From sequence record OZ413487.1: DNA of 64,000 nt; one strand, 5' to 3'. Below, piece after piece: positions 2,467-63,499 of the stretch. Every line of letters begins with the position of its first letter. Position 1 is the stretch's first letter. Origin of the DNA: a phage. The position numbers and the translations under genes were made by a program. A model generated the notes under the pieces. It worked only from the letters and a program-made list of their open reading frames with translations. It did not search any database and had not been told where the DNA came from.

Positions 2467-4890
2467 ATGAGCATGTGGTCGTTCGACTTTGAGTCATCCG
2501 GTTTGCTGGAAGACCCAGATCTTTATTATCACTGCGGCCTGTTTAAAGAGCTGAATAAGAACCGTTTTATGCTGTTCCTTCCTCTAAATGACCGCACACA
2601 CTACTCCGAGGAGGATATAGAAAAGGCTAAGAACTTCATTCTGGCAAAGAAAACTCTTTATAAAGATTTTGAAGTTCGCATAGCAGATTTTTCAGAGTTG
2701 GAAGGTTGGCTTACAGGAAATTCTGACTGGTCACCAACAGCTTTGAACTGCCATAACTGCTACAGTTATGACTTTATGCTGATGGAAAGATTATCTGGTA
2801 TTCATTTTGATATGTTCCGTGATCCTAAATGTATGGGGACTATCAACGATCACCAGGTTAACCTGTTTGATACGTTGGCGATGAGCCGAATCTTGTGGCC
2901 TGATCGCCCTTTACCAAAAGGTTGTCCGGACTCTGTATTCAACCCGGTTACTAAGAAAATGCAGCCTGTTGGTCCTCACGGCCTTATGGCATGGGGCTAC
3001 GCCCTTGGTAACCAGAAAGTTCAAATTGATGACTGGCGCGATCTTCCGTTGTGGAAGTATGTGGATCGTGTATTCGAGGACGTTATCATCCAGGAGCTGC
3101 TCTGGAAAGAGCTGGTAGCGGAATCAAAAGGTGTATTCTACGGCAAATCTGACATGCAGAACTTTATGTACGATCCGGCCAAAGAGAAGCCGAAAGGGTT
3201 CAAGAAGATCACCTGGAAGAACGCATTACGTCGAGGCATGCTGCAGCACTTCCTGATGGAGCTGCAGGCCCGTCAGGGTGTATACTTCGACATAGATGGA
3301 GCTATTGCTTTACGTGACCGTTGCGATGCGTGGATGAAAGAAATCGCTGATCGTGTTGAACCACAACTACCTTTAAAAGAGCTGTCAATGTCTCAGCGGC
3401 CCAAGTTCCCTGAAAAGCCGTTTAACCAAGACGGGACAATCTCTAATAATGGTTGGAAATGGTTAAAAGATAAGCTTGGCTATCCTGTAGACATGAGTGC
3501 TTTAGAGTTCAAAGCCCTGCCTAAGCGAGCATTTACCTCTACAGGAGATGTCAGCAAGATGGGGATAAAATGGTGTGAAGAGATGGGCTGCAAAGACCCC
3601 GATAAGATGGCTGATTTCTTGAGAGGCTATATTAAGGGCACCTCCACACCACAACCCTTACCTAAAGAGCTGATGGATCAGGCAATAAGTGATCTGCAGC
3701 AGAAGCGAATGCCTGACTGCAAGATACCTATGAAAATCAGCAATCAGGACGACATCAAGCGATACCTAATCAGTGCTGGTTGGCTCCCAACAATGTGGAG
3801 AACTAAAGATGTAACTAAAGACAGCAAGAAGAAAGCTTTACCTGATGCAGATGTTGATGCACGAGTATATGCATATATGGACGAGCTTTTGGAGTCAGAG
3901 TATTGTGACCTAATTATCAACTTCTGGAACAAAACTGATGCTAAGTTCCAGACAACCGTGCACAAGTTCCGAAGCTTTCCTAACTCCGAAAGGATTAAAA
4001 AGGAAGTATTCGGGAAAATACGTAGAAAAGCCAGGGCACTTATTACTTCTCCGCAACTGAAAGATACGTTTGGACACCTATGCCCAAATCTTGAAAAATT
4101 GAACGGAGAGATGGCTAAAGATATCGTCTTGTGGTTATCATTGCGAAACCGCAGATCGGTCCTTGATCCAATCAAGGAGGATAAGGTTGATACTGGTCTT
4201 CTTAATCACCCACGTTTGAAGATTGACCATAAGCTTCCTGCTAAAAGCTCTGGATTAACAAACACTTCCAGACAGAAACACAGTATTTGTGCAAACATGC
4301 CTAAACCATCTCCTAAAGTAGTTATGGGTAAAGAGATGCGTAGTCTGTGGGGTGTTCCTCCAGGATACTTTGAGATCGGTATTGACGGGTCCAACTTAGA
4401 GCAGCTCATCGGGGCTTGGGGTGCCTTTGAGTTCGACAACGGCTTGTATTATGATGTTGTAAGTAACGGAGACGCACACCAAAACAATGCTGAGGCATAT
4501 ACAAAAGTGGCAGGCAGAGAGGTGTCCCGTAACGACGGTAAACCTATCACGTATGGGGTTATGTACGGGGCACAAAAAGATAAAGTTGCAGATATGCTGG
4601 ACATCTCCCCAGAGTTGGGACAAAGGGTAATCGATGCACTCTGGGATGCCAACCCAGGTCTTAAGGGGCGCAAAGAGGATCTGGAGAAATTCTGGGAAGC
4701 AACAGGTAAGAAGTTTATCTACTCTTTTGATGGTCATGCTATCTGGACCCGATCTAAACACTCTTTACTTAATGCATACCAACAAAATGGCGGTGCATCG
4801 TTGTGTGACTTAGTTGGAATACTCATGCACCACCAGATGGTGAAGCGTGGGTGGTACGATGAAGGTGTTCGTCGTATTATTTATTACCAT
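2467..4890 (+). CDS. DNA polymerase, family A, exon 1 (3'-5' exo + polymerase motifs A and B, up to His of motif C)
   Basis: N-terminal exo I motif FDFESSGL; motif A GIDGSNLEQ; motif B RNDGKPITYGVMYGAQ; ORF ends ...RRIIYYH-K-stop where family A polymerases have VHDE. Confidence 0.8.
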
Positions 4891-5166
4891 AAATAACATT
4901 GTGGCTTCATAGAGTAATCTATGTCGAATAACCTCTTTAACTGCGGGAAGCCTAAACCTTATGGCAAGGTAATCCGCAACGAAGCGCTCAAAAGAGCGAA
5001 CGCTCAGAGGCCATTCCGAAAGGAAGTAGACCAGCAAGTGCGGTCGAAATGGGAGGATTCCTGTGGTTGCTTATCATAGGAATATGAGATGGTCCGATCC
5101 TACGTGAAAACGTATGGCTATGCACGTAATGGTGCGGGGTAGCTTAACGACCTACCTGAACTATTG
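4891..5166. other. putative group I self-splicing intron in DNA polymerase gene
   Basis: Exon 1 ends in U (4890); intron ends in G (5166); internal guide CAUUGUGG (4897-4904) can pair with exon-1 end CCAU (P1, U.G at splice site) and exon-2 start GAUG (P10); four in-frame stops; splicing restores YYH-DEYQLQV. Confidence 0.55.
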
Positions 5167-8699: not shown

Positions 8700-9925
8700 T
8701 GAGCGTTATTCAACAATTCGCTAACCCGATGAATCCGCGTGAAACTGTTTTACTAGCTCACGGCATGATTAAACGTGTCAGCATCAAGCCTATCAAAGGT
8801 GCTGATCCTACAACAGGTATTAAAACCACTGTGTGGCAAGGTAAGAAAATTGAATCCAGCCACACCATCTCTTTACTGATTTCTGAACTGGATTCCTCTG
8901 ATAACCTACTTCAAGGTGGTGAAGAAGTTTGGATCAGTATGGGCGATAAGCTGCTTAAACCAGGTCATCAAGACTCTGTCTCTGTTAAAATTGATGACAA
9001 GTGGGAAACCGTAACGCCAGGATGGATCGTAAATATCCCTTTGAAGGCAAACGAGCATAACGGTAAGACCTACTACAAAGGCTCACTGGCTAAGATGGTT
9101 AAGCTGGGTGCAGGAGAGGCTCCAGCAGCGACTCAGCAGCAAAAACAGCAACAAGGTGCACAATCACAAGGCCAGAAGCAGAAACCTCAGCAGAATGCCA
9201 ATCAGGACGTTTTACGCATCTATGGTGATGTGACTCAGATTGTTGGCAACGTGGTTACTGTTAATGACCACAAGATTGGCGAAGGTGCTATGGTTGTCAC
9301 TGATGAGCAGCTTAAAGACCTGGTGGTAGGTGGTCGTGTTGCAGCCATTGTTGACAAAGACACCGGAAACATTATCAGTGGCTTCAAGGCCTATCCTCCT
9401 AAGGCAGAGAACGGCACTCAAGGCTCTGGTGGCAAGCGTAAATCCTCTTACGACCCTATCGGTGTGGAGACGGGACATAGCATCAATGCGTTGCAGATCA
9501 TCCTGGATCGCGGGTTTAAGGTGGACGACCCACTAGGCGTGGCTAAAACACTGCACGTAGTCACCATTGAGCTTAAGAAAGAGTATGCTCAAGCCACCAA
9601 CCGAACTGAAGATGAAGTAGGTGCCAGTGTCGGCAATGCGGTGTTGAACGCTTGTCGCCGTATTGACAAGAAAACGAAAGTTGATGATTTTGCAGCGGCA
9701 ATTACTGCAGAAGCAAAAGATGTCTTGACTAATCTGGCTGAGCCGTTGTACGATTGGATCAAGAACGGTGCTGGGTCCACTGACCATCAAGAACCTCAAG
9801 CTGCCAAACAGGAAGCAGCTCCACAGCAAAACACTGTAGACGCTCCTCCTGTAAATGACGAGGAAGATGACCCGATGGATCAGAATCCAGCACAGTATGA
9901 GTTCGATGACTCGATCCCTTTCTGA
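8699..9925 (+). CDS. putative ssDNA-binding protein
   Basis: C-terminus QYEFDDSIPF resembles the acidic DDDIPF tail of bacterial SSB; Gln/Pro-rich linker; sits in the replication module. N-terminal fold not verified. Confidence 0.45.
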   Translation: MSVIQQFANPMNPRETVLLAHGMIKRVSIKPIKGADPTTGIKTTVWQGKKIESSHTISLLISELDSSDNLLQGGEEVWISMGDKLLKPGHQDSVSVKIDDKWETVTPGWIVNIPLKANEHNGKTYYKGSLAKMVKLGAGEAPAATQQQKQQQGAQSQGQKQKPQQNANQDVLRIYGDVTQIVGNVVTVNDHKIGEGAMVVTDEQLKDLVVGGRVAAIVDKDTGNIISGFKAYPPKAENGTQGSGGKRKSSYDPIGVETGHSINALQIILDRGFKVDDPLGVAKTLHVVTIELKKEYAQATNRTEDEVGASVGNAVLNACRRIDKKTKVDDFAAAITAEAKDVLTNLAEPLYDWIKNGAGSTDHQEPQAAKQEAAPQQNTVDAPPVNDEEDDPMDQNPAQYEFDDSIPF

Positions 9926-9933
9926 GGTCAGTT

Positions 9934-10512
9934 ATGAAATGCAAACGTTGTGGAGAGGACAAGGAGGCCTCCGACTTCTACACCAGTAACAAATCAACGT
10001 GCAAAGAGTGTTGCAAGAAGGCCAGCAGGGAGGCTGACCAATTTGCTAAAGACTCTTCAGAAAAAGGTGTAATACGTGTGTTGTACAAGGCTCAAAAGTG
10101 CAACAGCAAGCAAAGAGGTCACCCTCCTCCGACTTACACCAAAAAAGAGTTTAAGGAGTGGCTATACCTTAACGGTTACAAAGAGTTGTATGATCAGTGG
10201 GTAGCCAGCGGATACGACAAAAGGAAAAAGCCTTCTTGTGACAGGATAGATGATTTCAAAGGGTACTCTTTTGATAATATCCGTTTAACGACTTGGGGAG
10301 AAAATAAAGACAAGCAGACAGAGGATATTCTGTTACATAGAAGCACCAGCGGTAGACGGTGCAAAAATGTAAGGAGGTTGGACATGAATGGTAACGTTCT
10401 TAAAGAATGGGTATCTCACAACTCTTGTAGCAGAGAAACCGGAATATATATTGGTTACTACATTCATGAAAAAATTCCAGCTCCAGATGGATACTTATAC
10501 GAATACTTTTAA
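9934..10512 (+). CDS. putative HNH-family homing endonuclease
   Basis: N-terminal Cys cluster CKRCGEDK...CKECCKK; SCDRIDDFKGYSFDNIRLTTWGEN resembles degenerate HNH_3 motif. Confidence 0.45.
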   Translation: MKCKRCGEDKEASDFYTSNKSTCKECCKKASREADQFAKDSSEKGVIRVLYKAQKCNSKQRGHPPPTYTKKEFKEWLYLNGYKELYDQWVASGYDKRKKPSCDRIDDFKGYSFDNIRLTTWGENKDKQTEDILLHRSTSGRRCKNVRRLDMNGNVLKEWVSHNSCSRETGIYIGYYIHEKIPAPDGYLYEYF

Positions 10513-10527
10513 CACATAACTAACATA

Positions 10528-10555
10528 GCCCTGCCCGAAAGGGTGGGGCATTTTT
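10528..10555 (+). terminator. intrinsic terminator
   Basis: GCCCTGCCC-GAAA-GGGTGGGGC hairpin followed by TTTTT. Confidence 0.6.
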
Positions 10556-10574: not shown

Positions 10575-10991
10575 ATGACATTAGAAGATATCATTGTTAA
10601 ACCTGAGAACTATGACCAATACAACCTGTCAACTCAATCTGTAGACCTTGGATGCGCCACAGTTAGTGCGTGGCTGGTTAATGGAAAAGAGCTGGACAAG
10701 TGCTTAGAAGCTCACATGTCTGTTAACAAGTTTCTGGATGAAAATACTCACTGGCTTGAGGGTGCTGGAGTATATGCTTCATGGTTGGAGAGCATGGGCT
10801 TTGACTATCAATCTGATGAAGGGTGGTGGAGCTATCTGGCTATCTGTCCAGAAACACTGCAATGCTTCATGAAATACTCTGAAGATCTTGAGTACCGAGC
10901 GGTGGTTGATAGTGCTATTGCCCGTTATAGCCGTAAACCTTTTTCCCATGACATTAAAACTGTGGAAGAATTTGTTGAAGTTTTCTGTTGA
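10575..10991 (+). CDS. hypothetical protein
   Basis: ORF track; GGAGA RBS; stop TGA embedded in downstream TTGACA. Confidence 0.45.
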   Translation: MTLEDIIVKPENYDQYNLSTQSVDLGCATVSAWLVNGKELDKCLEAHMSVNKFLDENTHWLEGAGVYASWLESMGFDYQSDEGWWSYLAICPETLQCFMKYSEDLEYRAVVDSAIARYSRKPFSHDIKTVEEFVEVFC

Positions 10992-11087
10992 CACAGGTTG
11001 AAAGGTGTGCAATTATAACTTCATAAAACGGGAGGACGCGATGAACGAAGAAAACTGGGATGTATAACTAACAGGAGACCACTGCCC

Positions 11088-11285
11088 ATGATTTATCGAA
11101 TCCGTGTAAGAGAAGATGCACCAGGCTGTTACTTTGACTGGCGTGGGTGGTGGTTTCTCCACCCGATGGATGGACTCACAGATAGAATGCTGGATGCTGC
11201 CCTTTATACAGATACCGACATAGAATATAATCTTTATCTGAAGGACGGTATAGATAACGGCCTATTTGAAGCAATTCCTGTGTAA
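11088..11285 (+). CDS. hypothetical protein
   Basis: ORF track; AGGAGA RBS. Confidence 0.4.
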   Translation: MIYRIRVREDAPGCYFDWRGWWFLHPMDGLTDRMLDAALYTDTDIEYNLYLKDGIDNGLFEAIPV

Positions 11286-11353: not shown

Positions 11354-11773
11354 ATGATCTATGAAATGCCAAAATTGATCCGTGACGATGCCCAAAACCA
11401 CACCATTATTATGGGTAAACGCATGAATATCCTTTGCCGTAACGATTTCTGTGGTGGAGAATACGTTGCAGACTACTTCGGTGAGAATGGTAAACACCCT
11501 GTTCAGTTCTTCCTTGACCATGAGGATAACATTATCTGGGAGTTTGAAACTGAAGATATCCGCAACCTCTTCATCTTCCTCGGTGTCAAGGTTAAGGCCA
11601 ATTTCGCAGAAGGTGAGTGCGACGATTGTGGATTTTATGAGGTGACAGACTTTTATCTCCCGAGTGGCAAGAACCTTTACTATGAGAGTCACTTCGGAAA
11701 CACCAACATGCCTCAAAGCTGGGAAGAATTTTTCAGTATCGTAGAAGAGGAGCTGGCATACCGTGATTATTGA
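11354..11773 (+). CDS. hypothetical protein
   Basis: ORF track; GGAGAA RBS. Confidence 0.45.
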   Translation: MIYEMPKLIRDDAQNHTIIMGKRMNILCRNDFCGGEYVADYFGENGKHPVQFFLDHEDNIIWEFETEDIRNLFIFLGVKVKANFAEGECDDCGFYEVTDFYLPSGKNLYYESHFGNTNMPQSWEEFFSIVEEELAYRDY

Positions 11774-12221
11774 TACTGTAAAGGGAGATTTAATCTCCCT
11801 TTTTAAGAGCGGTGCTGGTCACCTGATCCACGGTTGTAACTGCTTCCACACAATGGGTAAAGGTATAGCAAAACAGATTGCCCGTGAGTTCCCTCAAGCA
11901 TTGGCAGCCGACAAAGAGACGAGACACGGTTGCCTAAGTAAACTGGGTGCGTTCTCCCGATGGGAGCACTTATCTCCGATAGGTATTGTCTACGGAATCA
12001 ATCTGTATACTCAGTTCTACCCAGGGCCTAATGCTGAATATTTCTCAATCCTGAAAGGCTTTGAGCTAGTCAATGAGGTATTCAAGGGATCGACTTTACC
12101 ATTCTACATCCCTAAGATCGGGTGCGGCATAGGCGGTTTGAAGTGGGAGCACGTAGAGGACGTTATTAACCTCGCCACTTTTGATATAGATATTATCGTG
12201 GTGGAGTACAAAGAGTGTTGA
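11763..12221 (+). CDS. macro domain protein (putative ADP-ribose binding / hydrolase)
   Basis: GDLISLF...[22 protein letters not shown] aligns with macro GDIT...[31 protein letters not shown] aligns with ISTGVYGY. Confidence 0.6.
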   Translation: [152 protein letters not shown]

Positions 12222-12246
12222 CAGCTGGCTTTTGAGATGGTATAGT
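12218..12246 (+). promoter_or_regulatory. sigma70-like promoter (TTGACA-17-TATAGT)
   Basis: -35 overlaps stop codon of the macro gene. Confidence 0.55.
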
Positions 12247-12274: not shown

Positions 12275-12475
12275 ATGGAGACTAAAATCTTAATTCTGGC
12301 TGTGATAGATACGACCGAAGGGGCCGTGTTCGAATCTGCAGGAGGGTATTTCTACCTGCCCTACGGAAAAAGAACTTCCGAACCGAGTAAAGATTCAATC
12401 CTTAAAGTGTTCCCTTGTGCTTTCTGGCTGGAGATTCTGGTAGAAGATTGCAGAGGATTGGGGAGAGAATTATGA
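12275..12475 (+). CDS. hypothetical protein
   Basis: ORF track; GAGAGGGAG RBS. Confidence 0.35.
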   Translation: METKILILAVIDTTEGAVFESAGGYFYLPYGKRTSEPSKDSILKVFPCAFWLEILVEDCRGLGREL

Positions 12476-12666
12476 GAAACAAGAAAGAGCTTTACTCTGG
12501 CGAGTGGATCAACGATCAACAGGTCGGAGAGGTAACCTGCTTCCGATGTTTTACCAGGTACAATCTTAAAACTGCACCAAAAAGTGTTCCAAAGACTGAT
12601 GGTTATTATATAAAAGAACCTCATTGCCCAAAATGTAAATGCCGATTGTACTGGAGCAATCTGTAA
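12472..12666 (+). CDS. hypothetical zinc-ribbon protein
   Basis: ORF track 12415..12666; ATG 12472 overlaps upstream stop; CFRC...CPKCKC motifs. Confidence 0.4.
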   Translation: MRNKKELYSGEWINDQQVGEVTCFRCFTRYNLKTAPKSVPKTDGYYIKEPHCPKCKCRLYWSNL

Positions 12667-12670
12667 GAGG

Positions 12671-12698
12671 TTGACATCTGAAAACTGCAGTGTATAAT
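12671..12698 (+). promoter_or_regulatory. sigma70-like promoter (TTGACA-16-TGnTATAAT)
   Basis: Consensus hexamers plus extended -10 TG. Confidence 0.65.
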
Positions 12699-22848: not shown

Positions 22849-22867
22849 TACAACAAGGTGCACGGTC

Positions 22868-22893
22868 AGGGGCTTAAAGCCCCTTTCTTTTTG
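22868..22893 (+). terminator. intrinsic terminator ending the + strand gene block
   Basis: AGGGGC-TTAAA-GCCCCT followed by TTCTTTTTG. Confidence 0.7.
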
Positions 22894-23502
22894 TCTCCTC
22901 TTTTCCTACCACAAATGGCCCCGCCTGGCAAATGGAATAATCAACAAGCCAGCAATTAACCCCACTGTACAAACATACATATAAAATAACTATTGCATAA
23001 TTTTTCATTGTGTGGTAGCAGTGCCATTTTTACACGTTTTTCCTTCCAAAATTGCACGTAATGCAGCATTTGCACAAAATTTAACCTGATGCATATCTTC
23101 AATAGCTTGTCAACAACTAAAAATCTTTATAAGTCATACACTTACATAACTACAAAAACGTTTTCTACGTGAAAAATCGAGTATAACTATAGCCGCCAGA
23201 TCTCAGAATTTACGTACGCTCGCCATTCTATAGCCTGCTAAGCATTTATTCCAACCATAGAATAACGGAATAGTCAATACCTGCATAAAATAATTATTCG
23301 TGTAAACTGCATAACATAAATCGGCCCAGGTGTCAACATTTTTCGTAAACAGTCTGGAATTGTCACGTTAGGTTACCATAAGCAGAGAAATCTTTAGTCG
23401 TCTAATGTTTACTGTACATTACTATACTGACTGGAATCATTAGATGACTAAGAGAAAGATAAGAAATAATTAATAATGTAATTATTTTACCTGTAACAAT
23501 AA

Positions 23503-23760
23503 GGCAACTATGCAAACGAATGGCATGGCGCGACGGAGTCGCGACATAATATAAAAGCAGTAACCATCACCCCCGTGATAGTTTGTCTGCAAACTATTAA
23601 TCAGATCATAGTTGCCTTGTATTTAGTTAATCATGACATGACAAGCAAGGCAACTATAGATCTGCTAATAGTTGCCCTGCTTTTATATTATGTCATGCTA
23701 ATTATAATCAGTGCGATTATTGTCATGTATAATTATTGTCATGCAAACGAATGGCATGGC
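23503..23760. repeat. GGCAACTAT motif x4 (two inverted pairs) bracketed by 19-nt direct repeat TGCAAACGAATGGCATGGC
   Basis: Direct repeats at 23511-23529 and 23742-23760; 12-bp inverted repeat ATAGTTGCCTTG / CAAGGCAACTAT at 23608-23619 and 23646-23657. Confidence 0.6.
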
Positions 23761-23767
23761 TGATTAT

Positions 23768-23862
23768 CGGTGTGTAAACAGTCAATCATGTAAATGGTTA
23801 GCATGTGAACAATCAGGAATGTAAACAATCCAGTGTGTAAACTAATAGGTGTGTAAAAGTGT
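23768..23862. repeat. TGTAAAC iteron cluster (5 copies in ~95 bp)
   Basis: GTGTGTAAAC x2-3, ATGTAAA, AATGTAAAC at 11-25 nt spacing. Confidence 0.55.
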
Positions 23863-24134
23863 CATGTTGTGTCAGTTAGGTCACATTATGTCAGACAAGT
23901 TTTTCTCCTCTTTGTCAAGTGCTGCATGAAAAATTTACAAGCTTGTATGGTAGCATTTTTGCGGCCCTGTTTACATTCAGTAATGTATGTATAATCCTTG
24001 TTGTGTGGGCGTTTAGACGTCTAGACGGTTGGAAGTCCACAGGTCAATATCTAATCTATCGGCTGCTAACTATATCCCACACAAATAGTAAGAAATATGA
24101 TTGTTATATGCGTAAACTGTAACTCATGTTATCA

Positions 24135-24505
24135 ATCCCTGTATGGATCGCCAGTGGTGCGCATAATAGGTATTATGTTAAATTGCCCGTAATGATAACA
24201 GTTCTCACAATGATAGGTATTCTCATTCATCCACACAAAATAGGTTGCAAATGTTGTGCCACTGTGTGAACGGCCTGGCCTATTAATTTCTCTCACTGCC
24301 TCGATATTTGAGAATTGTTATCCCTGTATGGATCGCCAGTGGTGCGCATAATAGGTATTATGTTAAATTGCCCGTAATGATAACAGTTCTCACAATGATA
24401 GGTATTCTCATTCATCCACACAAAATAGGTTGCAAATGTTGTGCCACTGTGTGAACGGCCTGGCCTATTAATTTCTCTCACTGCCTCGATATTTGAGAAT
24501 TGTTA
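24135..24505. repeat. tandem duplication, two ~185-bp units
   Basis: Unit beginning ATCCCTGTATGGATCGCCAGTGGTGCGCATAATAGG... occurs twice head-to-tail, essentially identical. Confidence 0.85.
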
Positions 24506-25564
24506 TAAGAATGAGAAGTATTCCCATTCCGTCCGCCTGGCAGCACTCCTGTAGGTCCTGCAAGGACTCTAGCTGAAAGCTAGACCCTTCGGGCCTCCCT
24601 GTAGGTCAGGTCAAAATCGTGGTAGAATTGGGCCTGTTCAGATATTTCTGGCTGACTCTTCAGGTCTGTGTGGGAAAAGCCAACCTCTCCGGCGGGGCAG
24701 GGGGTCATGACGGGAAAATTGCAGGTCAATTAAAAAATTTACGTGGTGTATGAAGCGCTCTTCAGGTAAGGCATGTATTATGGGATGAAACCCTCTTCAG
24801 GCAATGATATTTGTGGGTGTGATATTTGCTGGAAAGCCAGATATGACGGGACTCCCGGCGGGGATGGGGTAGTACAGACAGGGAAAATATGAGAATGTAG
24901 TTGGGGAAATTGATCAGACAGGTAGAGTATGGAATATGTTACAAGTATGTTAAATATGGAGGTTGAATATCTGTAGGATTTGTGTGTAAAATCAAAGACT
25001 TAAGGGGTGTTGTGGTATTTTCTATAAATAATTCAAGTTTAATAGGCAATATTTGTCTCTATCCGCTTTGTGTGGTAAACAGATTCAGATTAGATTGGTT
25101 TACAAGTGTATACATAATATACAAATTAAAGATACAAGAAACCCCCCTCCCCCTTCGGCTACCATTCACCTTTTCCTCTGACTGGTACTTAAACACTTAT
25201 TCAGACTCTTCAGGTTATCACCCATATATCATATGGCAGTGACTGGTGTCCTCCGGCCCCTCTTTCGTCACCCGTCCGCTTCGCCATGCTAATGCCATAG
25301 CCAATGGTTCGGTTGTTCACTCTGTTCACTCAGGTGTATCTCCATACCCCTTCAAACCGAAGAGAACAGAAAACCCGAATTACTCGGTAAAAGAAAAGAG
25401 AAGAACTTAATTTTATCAGGATAGGCAAGAATGTCAAGGCATGACTGCTCACTAAACAAGCAAACAGTCATGTGTGGAAGGTAAGTGATTGTGGTGGTGG
25501 GAAATTTAGTTGAAAGATGTGTTATAGGTGCTCCCAGCACTTTAGCCGGGTAGCTAATTGTGTG

Positions 25565-60719: not shown

Positions 60720-61433
60720 TTAAATATACTCTGTTACATCCTTGAAGCTCGAAGGCTTCATGATCTTACCTTTACTGTCAAGGAATATGATAACTTTATT
60801 ACCGTTGTAGAATTCTTCCTTAGCAACAAAACCTTCATATCGACCATCAAAGCGTCGTTCAAGATCTTTAATCTCCAACTCGATGAGTTGTTCAGCAGGC
60901 ATATCTGCACTGGCACCGTGTGAATACCGTAGATGGTTGACCCGTGCAAACTTGCTGTCATTCGATTTGAGAACCTTACGCATCATCCCGCACACATCGC
61001 CGCGAAGCTGGAACAGCAAAGCTGTTGACAACTCTGCTAAGCGGTAAGCGGATGCTCTTTGCTTAGAGGTGTTTTTCGCAGCGATCAGTGTATCATAGAA
61101 CTCACCGATCTTGAACTTAAGACCTCGTGGATTATCAAACAGGTTTGACCACTTTTCGTGATTGTCATTAACAAGATAAGCGGCATAACTTGTGACAACG
61201 TGAAGATCGCAGGCCTCTTTTAGCAGGTGATCTCCACCATCCCCTTTCTCCAGCTCTTCCAAAACTTCATTGAACTCTTCCTCAATGAAGCTAAGCTGTA
61301 ATTCGAACGGTATGTATGATTTTTTCACTTTAGCTGCCACACGGTTCCAGTTTTCCACCCAGTTGGCAGACCAAAGGTAGTTTTCAGGTTGGGACAGTTT
61401 TTCCAGGTTGTCAATTAATTTGGTATTCAGCAT
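60720..61433 (-). CDS. hypothetical protein with MazG-like NTP pyrophosphohydrolase N-terminal region
   Basis: EEEFNEVLEELEKGDGGDHLLKEACDLHVV resembles MazG E-x2-E-x-EA...ELGDLL helix pair. Confidence 0.35.
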   Translation of the reverse strand: MLNTKLIDNLEKLSQPENYLWSANWVENWNRVAAKVKKSYIPFELQLSFIEEEFNEVLEELEKGDGGDHLLKEACDLHVVTSYAAYLVNDNHEKWSNLFDNPRGLKFKIGEFYDTLIAAKNTSKQRASAYRLAELSTALLFQLRGDVCGMMRKVLKSNDSKFARVNHLRYSHGASADMPAEQLIELEIKDLERRFDGRYEGFVAKEEFYNGNKVIIFLDSKGKIMKPSSFKDVTEYI

Positions 61434-61446
61434 TAAAGGTCTCCTT

Positions 61447-62208
61447 TTAAAGTTCCATAAAGTTTTCTACGGTCTCAATGAATGTTTTATCAGAGAAGGC
61501 ATCAACCGCACCGTTAAACCAAACTGGGATGCCGCGATCCTCATACTGGTAAATATCACTACGTGAAATGCCATTCTCCTCTAGATGCTGTGAGTCGTAT
61601 TTATTAACGATCAGTAGTTTGGTTCCCTTATTGCAGGCAGGGAATAGCTCCCAGTTAAAATTGATAACTGTGTTGGAACACCCTACAAGGATAACCATAT
61701 CATTGCTTGTAAGAGAAGTCAACAGGTCATACATGTCTGTATACTTCGGAGCTACTTCTCCGAAGAACACCACATTAGGTTTAACCCAGGTATACTTTCC
61801 TGCATCTACCTCAGAGTATCCAATGTCCTTAATGACGTCACTTCCTTCATCGTCCTCATAGACTATTTCTGGCAAATACCCGTGAACATGTAAAATATCT
61901 TCATGTTTTACACCAGCACGCTCCAGCAAATCATCTACATTGGTGGTAAGGTTGATCACACGACCAGACCAGCGGGAATACCACTCAGCGATCCGAAGAT
62001 GTGCAAGGTTAGGCTCAACACCGCCTAGAGCTACACGACGTGCATTGTAAAAGTCATGCACCTTGTAGTAGTTCTTGGCAAAGGTGTGGATGTTGCACAC
62101 CTCATCGATGCTGAAATTCTCCCACATTGCAGTGCTACCAGATCGGAAAGTGGGAATACCAGATTCAGCGCTCAAACCAGCACCGGAGATAATAATCAGT
62201 CGTCGCAT
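61447..62208 (-). CDS. Sir2-family protein (sirtuin-like NAD+-dependent enzyme)
   Basis: GAGLSAESGIPTFR; catalytic HG in DILHVHGYL; FGE and VGCSNTV motifs; no Zn-ribbon cysteines. Confidence 0.75.
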   Translation of the reverse strand: MRRLIIISGAGLSAESGIPTFRSGSTAMWENFSIDEVCNIHTFAKNYYKVHDFYNARRVALGGVEPNLAHLRIAEWYSRWSGRVINLTTNVDDLLERAGVKHEDILHVHGYLPEIVYEDDEGSDVIKDIGYSEVDAGKYTWVKPNVVFFGEVAPKYTDMYDLLTSLTSNDMVILVGCSNTVINFNWELFPACNKGTKLLIVNKYDSQHLEENGISRSDIYQYEDRGIPVWFNGAVDAFSDKTFIETVENFMEL

Positions 62209-62216
62209 AAGTGTCC

Positions 62217-62567
62217 TCAGTAGATGTTTTGTTTAATCTCTATTCCAAACTTTTTAAACGAGTCAGCTGCAAGCATGAATTTACGAGCCGCTGATGGGTT
62301 AGAAGTATGCACGAAAATCTTCACGTTGTCAACTACAGGGGGCTTACCAAATACAAATTTTTCCTCCAACATAGATAGGCAATCGTACCCTTCGAACACC
62401 TCTCCAAGGTCGTTGTCCATGTGCCACTCAGAAACGCGTCTGTAGAGCTTTCCCCTATCGTTAATAAAATCTATAAACTCGGAGGAATTCTTTAGCCAAA
62501 TAGCGTCTGGGAGCCCATAATTTGACGGATCTCTCAAGTCATCCAGCCACACAATCAACTTCTTCAT
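62217..62567 (-). CDS. hypothetical protein co-operonic with Sir2 and RNA ligase
   Basis: 4-nt overlap with RNA ligase gene; 9-nt gap to Sir2 gene. Confidence 0.4.
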   Translation of the reverse strand: MKKLIVWLDDLRDPSNYGLPDAIWLKNSSEFIDFINDRGKLYRRVSEWHMDNDLGEVFEGYDCLSMLEEKFVFGKPPVVDNVKIFVHTSNPSAARKFMLAADSFKKFGIEIKQNIY

Positions 62568-63499
62568 TGCATATAGTTCTCGTTGTGGAAATAGTAATCA
62601 AGTATCTCACGGCGTTCCTGCTCCAGGAGGCAGTTCCACACATCTTCTGTGTAATTGTTACGAATGAAGTTTACCATGCCGTAAAACTCTTCGTCAACAC
62701 GTTTAAAGATATCATCATCCCAAATCCTCCAAGCTTTACCCCTCATTACGGCCTTCCGTGCCAGGTAGTATGGAGACTTGATCTTCAGCTGCAGGTCATA
62801 AGGGTAGTAAGGCTTACGGATCATATACCCTTCGCCCCTTGTTTCTGCGGCTAATTCTTTTGCATAGCTGAACGGGATTTCACGCACAGTGTGAGGACGT
62901 TTTGCACCAAGGTATTTGGCAATCCCATCTAAAGCTGCTTCTGGTAGCATTATTCCAGAATCATTATATCTGCAACCTATCAAATATGCGCCATGGTCTT
63001 CTTGAACAATATGCGGATCTGAAGGGTGACAAATTTCAAACATGAATGTCATGTTTTCATTGCCCATAACCTTCTTGATAAGATCTAAATTACCACATTG
63101 CTCTTGGATGGTTTCCTTTGCAAGGTTACAATATGGAGAATCAAGAGACCCGGTTGTTGAGAACAATAGGTCACCTTTATGAGATGATACCACACCAAGG
63201 AATCCGTTCTTTTTCTCTACCGCAGTCACAAGCTTATTGTCAGGCAGGTTGGTGGAGTTTTCTCCCAAGTTAAACACTTTTGTGAAGGGCCATGCCACAA
63301 CATTTCCTTCATTACCTACAACAATGCCTCGACACTCCAGTAAACGAGGGGACAAATGCCATAAATTGTTGTAAAATACTTTTCTAGCATATTTATAGAT
63401 CTTTAACCCAAGATCCGGGTAATATCTACTGGTTACAAGACCTTTGTCAACTAGGTCGTCTGCATTAAAATACTTCATCATACGTTCCTCATTTGTCAT
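62564..63499 (-). CDS. putative RNA ligase (nucleotidyltransferase superfamily)
   Basis: Motif I-like VEKKNGF, motif IV EGYMIRK, motif V-like LKIKSPYY; a separate DNA ligase exists at 58809. Confidence 0.5.
   Translation of the reverse strand: MTNEERMMKYFNADDLVDKGLVTSRYYPDLGLKIYKYARKVFYNNLWHLSPRLLECRGIVVGNEGNVVAWPFTKVFNLGENSTNLPDNKLVTAVEKKNGFLGVVSSHKGDLLFSTTGSLDSPYCNLAKETIQEQCGNLDLIKKVMGNENMTFMFEICHPSDPHIVQEDHGAYLIGCRYNDSGIMLPEAALDGIAKYLGAKRPHTVREIPFSYAKELAAETRGEGYMIRKPYYPYDLQLKIKSPYYLARKAVMRGKAWRIWDDDIFKRVDEEFYGMVNFIRNNYTEDVWNCLLEQERREILDYYFHNENYMQ

Follow-up and report, generated by a model that had tools for sequence, protein, structure and literature searches.

The 64,000-nucleotide stretch of phage DNA analysed here (record OZ413487.1, hereafter the window) belongs to a Vequintavirus, an rV5-like Escherichia coli myovirus, and encodes a genuine macrodomain, a stand-alone single-domain protein of the ALC1-like class that also comprises TARG1, DarG, SCO6735 and Poa1p. 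By its sequence, the protein is assigned to a Gln-type lineage typified by Tk.4 of phage T4, which carries a glutamine at the position of the catalytic lysine of TARG1 and DarG. We consider it probable that this protein acts as an orphan antitoxin-like DNA ADP-ribosyl-glycohydrolase, which would remove the ADP-ribose (ADPr) installed by the toxin DarT2 on thymidines of single-stranded phage DNA, utilizing a Gln/Asn-assisted, water-mediated chemistry. What is established for the window protein itself is its fold, its family and the conservation of its active-site signature, while a substrate and role shared with its relatives are what we infer from the phenotype in T4 and the biochemistry of SCO6735.

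The gene and its putative ribosome-binding site are located as follows:
11763..12221 (+): macrodomain gene of the Tk.4/AdfM type, single domain, GTG start, TGA stop, 152 amino acids
11747..11752 (+): Shine-Dalgarno-like GAGGAG, 10 nt before the GTG start, read from the sequence

An initial annotation of the window had placed a 152-amino-acid open reading frame (ORF) at exactly these coordinates, had noticed macro-domain signature blocks in it and had named a profile search and a structure prediction as ways to check it, and the call is borne out. The ORF matches the Pfam family PF01661 (Macro) with 28.3 bits (E 1.8e-6), above the gathering score of 22, and the PHROG family phrog_335 with an E value of 3.9e-60, and a profile built from 51 homologues finds macrodomains in the PDB with E values of 5e-19 to 1e-13. 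The AlphaFold2 model is of high confidence (pLDDT 94.6, pTM 0.90) and displays the three-layer alpha/beta/alpha macro fold; in Foldseek searches of the PDB it matches Poa1p, TARG1, DarG, BT1257 and SCO6735 with a probability of 1.00 and TM-scores of 0.70-0.78. All loops of the ADP-ribose pocket are present and conserved in the homologues, namely the N26 loop, G32-x-G34 and the Gly-rich loop G120-C-G-I-G-G125. The N-terminus, MIIDTVKGD, lines up with those of homologues such as MIVKYIKGD in T4, and the GTG start is therefore correct. Phage HdK5 carries the same gene model annotated as 'macro domain protein', and in several relatives the gene has already been labelled either macro domain protein or 'phosphatase'.

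The conserved residues cluster in four segments:
11829..11843 (+): H23-G24-C25-N26-C27 motif; N26, G24 and C27 in 51/51 homologues, H23 in 50/51
11853..11870 (+): M31-G-K-G-I-A36 loop, the first phosphate/ribose-binding loop; G34 and A36 invariant, K33 in 7/51
12000..12014 (+): N80-L-Y-T-Q84 motif; N80 and Q84 in 51/51
12111..12137 (+): P117-K-I-G-C-G-I-G-G125, the Gly-rich diphosphate-binding loop; G120 in 51/51, G122 in 48/51, G125 in 47/51

Counted over the same 51 homologues, which reach down to 29% identity, residues G24, N26, C27, G34, A36, N80, Q84 and G120 are invariant and H23, M31, G32, Y82, T83, P117, I119, G122 and G125 nearly so, and the family signature HGCNC ... NxYTQ ... PxIGxGxGG is present in the window macrodomain. 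In profile and pairwise alignments (4j5r, 5e3b, 2fg1, 5m3i), Q84 takes the position of TARG1 K84, TaqDarG K80, the lysine in the PTK motif of Mycobacterium tuberculosis DarG and SCO6735 Q85, and G124 that of TARG1 D125. DarG and TARG1 use a Lys or Lys/Asp chemistry that is therefore absent here, and the glutamine at this position had been overlooked in the initial annotation. N26 is the counterpart of DarG N22 and SCO6735 N27, the asparagine by which the catalytic residue is positioned. The equivalent of G24 is SCO6735 V25, which has been proposed to hold the catalytic water through its backbone carbonyl, and that of K33 is SCO6735 K34. The two best PDB profile matches, BT1257 and SCO6735, are both of the Gln type.

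The predicted chemistry is modelled on SCO6735 from Streptomyces coelicolor (PDB 5e3b). Its Q85A and Q85E variants lose activity entirely and N27S nearly so, it cleaves thymidine-linked ADPr-DNA faster than DarG or TARG1 does, and it rescues both E. coli and S. coelicolor from DarT (PMC9411070). A water-mediated mechanism has been proposed for it, in which the glutamine positions the distal ribose and the V25 backbone carbonyl holds the water (PMC9411070). The window protein shares with SCO6735 the Gln at the catalytic-lysine position together with the locking Asn, the H-x-C-N motif and the G-C-G loop (profile E 9e-18, TM-score 0.74). However, the two are about 22% identical, the invariant Gly of the phage family is replaced by V25 in SCO6735, its longer and mobile basic loop with K89 and K94 contrasts with a shorter loop after Q84 in the phage protein (QFYPGPN), and it is a cellular, DNA-damage-inducible protein.

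The proposed anti-DarT2 role rests on homology to T4 Tk.4. The window protein aligns end to end with Tk.4, with 39% identity over 152/155 amino acids (E 5e-41), the motif P-IG-GIG is common to both, and they match phrog_335 with 205 and 223 bits, respectively. Both are single domains of about 150 residues with the same N...Q signature and Gly-rich loop, and both genes lie among small accessory genes. They differ in phage subfamily, Tevenvirinae versus Vequintavirinae, in K33, which is a serine in T4, and in gene order, since the T4 gene is located between vs and tk.3 and no synteny is seen. Growth of a T4 transposon library on DarTG2 depleted a single gene, tk.4, and its clean deletion renders T4 DarTG2-sensitive; the gene was named adfM (anti-DarT factor Macrodomain), and its product was described as structurally similar to M. 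tuberculosis DarG (HIDEN-SEQ preprint, bioRxiv 10.1101/2025.11.20.689424). The searches with the window protein point the same way: DarG is the sole family matched in PADLOC (E 9.5e-14) and NCBIfam (antitoxin_DarG, E 5.9e-13), in both cases through the macro part only, and the best single-sequence PDB match is the M. tuberculosis DarG macrodomain 5m3i. Genotype and phenotype also agree in phage T5, which is DarTG2-sensitive (bioRxiv 10.1101/2025.11.20.689424) and in which neither tblastn nor the family hidden Markov model (HMM) detects a macrodomain. The initial annotation had suggested an interplay with host ADP-ribosylation, and reversal of DNA ADP-ribosylation by DarT2, by homology to Tk.4/AdfM, is the best-supported form of that idea; a functional pairing with the Sir2-family protein is not supported, as set out below.

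Hence, we hypothesize that the gene is expressed from host-type promoters along with other small accessory genes and that its product would bind the ADP-ribose that the host toxin DarT2 puts on thymidines of single-stranded phage DNA. Hydrolysis of the N-glycosidic ribose-thymine bond would then yield free ADP-ribose and replicable DNA, and the phage would thereby be equipped with an 'orphan antitoxin' against DarTG2. The chemistry is predicted to follow SCO6735 and not the lysine model of TARG1 and DarG, with Q84, held by N26, positioning the distal ribose and a water held by the G24 carbonyl starting the cleavage.

Several points weigh against this assignment. Literature searches found no experiment on any Vequintavirus macrodomain or on Vequintavirinae challenged with DarTG2. 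The evidence for T4 Tk.4, to which the window protein is only 39% identical, is genetic and not enzymatic, and comes from a preprint. Poa1p, which is a small-molecule phosphatase, and TARG1 are at about the same distance from the family. The DNA-contacting lysines of SCO6735 are not family traits, as the K34 equivalent K33 is found in only 7/51 homologues and the loop that carries K89 is shorter, and the gene neighbourhood gives no pointer to DNA or DarT. The window protein is also slightly acidic (isoelectric point (pI) 6.3), yet the macrodomain of phage phiKZ, a proven DNA enzyme, is even more so (pI 5.05), and net charge was therefore dropped as an argument against DNA binding.

That phage protein, gp104 or AdfM of the chimallivirus phiKZ, takes T-ADPr off DNA in vitro and confers protection from DarTG2 (PMC13309987), so that for macrodomains of this other lineage counter-defence against DarTG2 is backed by biochemical proof. 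It resembles the window protein as a stand-alone phage macrodomain that counters DarTG2 and falls into the same PHROG, since family 335 lumps the window macrodomain, T4 Tk.4 and phiKZ gp104 together. In contrast to the window protein, it has a Lys-type site (FPTKDNW), belongs to a separate lineage and is imported into the phage nucleus; equating the two was rejected on the grounds of 20% identity (E 8e-5) and the Lys-type site. The split is also visible in scores against the DarG models, which are 133-138 bits for phiKZ gp104, 49 for the window macrodomain and 30-36 for T4 Tk.4. The DarG2 macrodomains of Thermus aquaticus (5m31/5m3e) and M. tuberculosis (5m3i) share the fold, the ADPr pocket and the conserved Asn (N22), but their catalytic K80 is replaced by Q84 here, and both a C-terminal DarT-binding domain and an adjacent darT are lacking. 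The window protein was accordingly not filed as DarG (NCBIfam NF048014 / PADLOC), because it scores 48.8 bits against an equivalog cut-off of 250, covers model positions 2-143 of 338, and has neither the C-terminal domain nor the catalytic Lys. Human TARG1/OARD1 (4j5r/4j5s) gives the best TM-scores (0.77-0.78) with the same length and topology, whereas its K84/D125 dyad is replaced by Q84/G124.

Among the alternatives, the one that survives best, although we regard it as unlikely, is that the protein serves as an eraser or sponge in some other defence that relies on ADP-ribose. It might take ADPr off RNA or protein (mRNA ADP-ribosylation of the CmdT type, or adducts on uracil or other bases), or it might degrade or sequester ADP-ribose (ADPR)-derived signals of TIR/Thoeris systems, such as His-ADPR and gcADPR. 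Macrodomains are versatile, both SCO6735 and TARG1 being active on protein and DNA substrates alike (PMC9411070), the Thoeris II effector ThsA binds His-ADPR via a macrodomain, and the occurrence of a homologue in 2717 phage records suggests a breadth that may exceed that of DarTG2. However, no family member has been tied to any of those systems, the T4 screen on DarTG2 singled out tk.4 alone, and the active-site signature is that of a thymidine-ADPr-DNA hydrolase.

A second alternative connects the macrodomain with NAD-dependent RNA repair. The initial annotation had reported a Sir2-family gene at 61447 and had taken the two proteins together as a sign of interplay with host ADP-ribosylation or NAD-based defence. 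The gene is present, as part of a group on the opposite strand:
62564..63499 (-): Rnl1-type RNA ligase gene
62217..62567 (-): gene for a cREC cyclic-phosphate-processing domain
61447..62208 (-): Sir2-family gene (PF02146, E 5.5e-27), beside the cREC and RNA ligase genes
60720..61433 (-): 237-amino-acid protein without a Pfam match

Together, 60720..63499 (-) is predicted to form an RNA-repair cluster. According to Iyer et al. 2022, this gene context characterizes a viral sirtuin clade that has a predicted RNA-repair function and shows no coupling with a Macro gene, and such sirtuins are predicted to generate ADPr>P. If the macrodomain belonged to this module, it would be a Poa1p-like small-molecule enzyme, dephosphorylating ADP-ribose-1''-phosphate or deacetylating O-acetyl-ADP-ribose as products of the phage's own repair: the sirtuin would act like KptA/Tpt1, cREC would open the cyclic phosphate and the Rnl1-type ligase would seal, placing macrodomain and Sir2 in one pathway. 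The presence of Sir2, cREC and ligase genes in the window, read with the ADPr>P prediction, fits this scheme. So does the likeness to yeast Poa1p (6lfq-6lfu), an ADP-ribose-1''-phosphate phosphatase that is the top Foldseek match and also has the HxCNC motif; the legacy 'phosphatase / A1pp motif' annotation of T4 Tk.4 and many homologues goes back to it. Poa1p H23 and S30, mutated in 6lfs and 6lft, align with H23 (50/51 homologues) and T30 (37/51) of the window protein. Poa1p, however, has a Ser in place of the family's invariant Gln, contains a large insertion (about 180 residues in all) and acts on a small molecule in tRNA splicing, and the sole known phenotype of the phage family is DarTG2 counter-defence.

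The genomic evidence likewise speaks against a shared pathway. The Sir2 and macrodomain genes lie 49 kb apart on opposite strands and are neither adjacent nor co-transcribed. T5 encodes a Sir2 protein 57.6% identical to that of the window (E 2.6e-99) and has no macrodomain, as noted above. A sample of 30 evenly spaced rows from the 1010 Sir2-positive phage records held no genome of T4 size, the 2717 macro-positive records include many T4-like phages, and an evenly spaced sample of the latter held no genome of T5 size; as far as such samples of match lists go, this suggests that T4-like phages have the macrodomain without this Sir2. Because of the distance and strand, the RNA-repair context, the T5 Sir2 without a macrodomain and the sampled match lists, the two genes are regarded as separate modules, with a macrodomain that clears ADPr-1''-P from the sirtuin route as a minority possibility; a Poa1p-like function as a whole appears quite improbable. 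A SirTM-like Sir2-macro pair was rejected as well, given how far apart and on which strands the genes lie, the context of Sir2 and the counter-example of T5, and the proposed functional link between the two proteins is not upheld.

A broader reading, which we put forward as distinctly doubtful, is that Gln-type Tk.4-like macrodomains are broad, lysine-independent, water-mediated ADP-ribose erasers, which in Vequintavirinae might both clear DarT2 DNA adducts and process the ADPr-1''-phosphate/ADPr>P arising from sirtuin-cREC-Rnl1 RNA repair. If true, anti-DarT defence and NAD-dependent RNA repair would be joined in one enzyme. Neutralisation without hydrolysis, by direct binding to DarT2 or to ADP-ribosylated DNA, seems highly improbable: in vitro, the dead SCO6735 Q85A variant retains inhibition of DarT that is stronger than that by DarG or TARG1 mutants, and the family has no Lys nucleophile, but the C-terminal DarT-binding domain of DarG is missing (152 residues versus a model of 329-338 positions), the fact that N26, Q84 and the Gly loop are absolutely conserved favours catalysis, and such binding would need to suit diverse DarT2 proteins.

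With tblastn, a macrodomain homologue is found in 2717 of 50,697 phage records; about 119 of these show at least 80% protein identity, corresponding to the Vequintavirinae, with a single copy where this was checked, and T4-like phages have homologues of 39-47% identity in the gene tk.4, which adjoins vs. The window contains only one macro-like (Tk.4-like) ORF. The 3 kb around it share 96.8% identity with phage MaxTheCat, coverage of this region reaches 80% or more in 116 records, and a dN/dS ratio of 0.13 against the HdK5 orthologue indicates purifying selection. A bacterial homologue (Pelagimonas, P0065, 38% identity), inspected for a hint of an antitoxin origin, has no adjacent DarT; it is surrounded by unrelated housekeeping genes. 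Between 16 and 25 'Campylobacter phage' records (host C. jejuni; MG065644, MG065690, MG065676 and others) are 92-93% identical over the region and also encode the Sir2 protein of the window phage; they are apparently rV5-like coliphage genomes that were mislabelled or are contaminants.

The anti-DarTG2 role of the family is already known, having been published for T4 in 2025, and the explicit distinction between Gln-type and Lys-type phage anti-DarT macrodomains is a mildly new point. The name AdfM covers two unrelated-looking lineages: in chimalliviruses it denotes Lys-type proteins that resemble DarG, in T4 and the window phage Gln-type proteins that resemble Tk.4. If the proposed function holds, the Gln type, with about 2,700 phage records, would use an SCO6735-style mechanism and not that of DarG, and rV5-like phages, which are used in biocontrol of E. 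coli O157 and in therapy cocktails, would bring a ready-made DarTG2 counter, which would help to predict their host range on DarTG2-positive strains. The comparison also corrects the legacy 'phosphatase' annotation and sets the phage sirtuin, with its RNA-repair context, apart from the macrodomain.

The following features surround the macrodomain gene:
11354..11773 (+): 139-amino-acid ORF upstream, phrog_8157 (function unknown), its end overlapping the macrodomain start by 11 nt
11203..11231 (+): nearest upstream sigma-70-like promoter match, TTTATA-17-TATAAT, 10/12, consensus match only
10988..11016 (+): second upstream sigma-70-like promoter match, consensus match only
10528..10549 (+): strong terminator-like hairpin with a T-run, ending the preceding transcription unit; HdK5 has an annotated terminator at the corresponding position
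12218..12246 (+): sigma-70-like match TTGACA-17-TATAGT with TG, 11/12, starting on the macrodomain stop codon; it would serve the next small ORFs

Because of the 11-nt overlap, an arrangement also seen in the HdK5 annotation, the 139-amino-acid ORF and the macrodomain gene are probably co-transcribed and translationally coupled. No terminator-like site was found between the two upstream promoter matches and the macrodomain gene. The promoter scan returned 16 sites in total, compared with 12 +/- 3.6 from shuffled sequences, and is thus not above expectation. A location in the early region is plausible, given the run of small + strand ORFs and the consensus promoter matches. The ten flanking ORFs match PHROGs of unknown function, except for an HNH/endonuclease VII-like insert and a zinc-binding domain, and no DarT, ART, NADAR or Nudix domain was found among them. 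The insert, a 192-amino-acid ORF at 9934..10512 (+) matching phrog_1035 (E 2.7e-32), corresponds to a segment at 9898..10506 that is additional relative to HdK5 and is flanked by the 408-amino-acid ORF and the terminator; it probably encodes a free-standing homing endonuclease that some Vequintaviruses have and others lack. Just 3' of the macrodomain gene, 12475..12666 (+) encodes a 63-amino-acid protein with a phage zinc-binding domain (PF23903, E 7.8e-23), directly followed by a perfect 12/12 sigma-70 consensus match at 12671-12698.

Two further regions of the window deserve mention. A group I intron lies at 4881..5166 (+) inside the DNA polymerase gene (Rfam RF00028, full-length model, 64.7 bits, E 4e-14); an 809-amino-acid ORF at 2467..4896 ends just within it, and the polymerase frame resumes 3' of the intron. 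HdK5 lacks exactly the 276-bp segment 4891..5166, so the intron, which is ORF-less, is mobile and polymorphic among Vequintaviruses. Between the + strand and - strand arms, at the peak of the cumulative GC skew, an ORF-poor stretch of about 2.1 kb (22850..24980) contains a perfect 185-nt tandem duplication (24135-24319 and 24320-24504). In the same stretch, 20 nt recur exactly and in direct orientation (23510, 23741), and a perfect inverted repeat of 18 nt is found at 23543 and 23677. The equivalent intergenic region of about 2 kb in phage Bas54 tolerates no transposon insertions (HIDEN-SEQ preprint, bioRxiv 10.1101/2025.11.20.689424), which suggests a non-coding element that is essential and might be an origin or a regulatory RNA.

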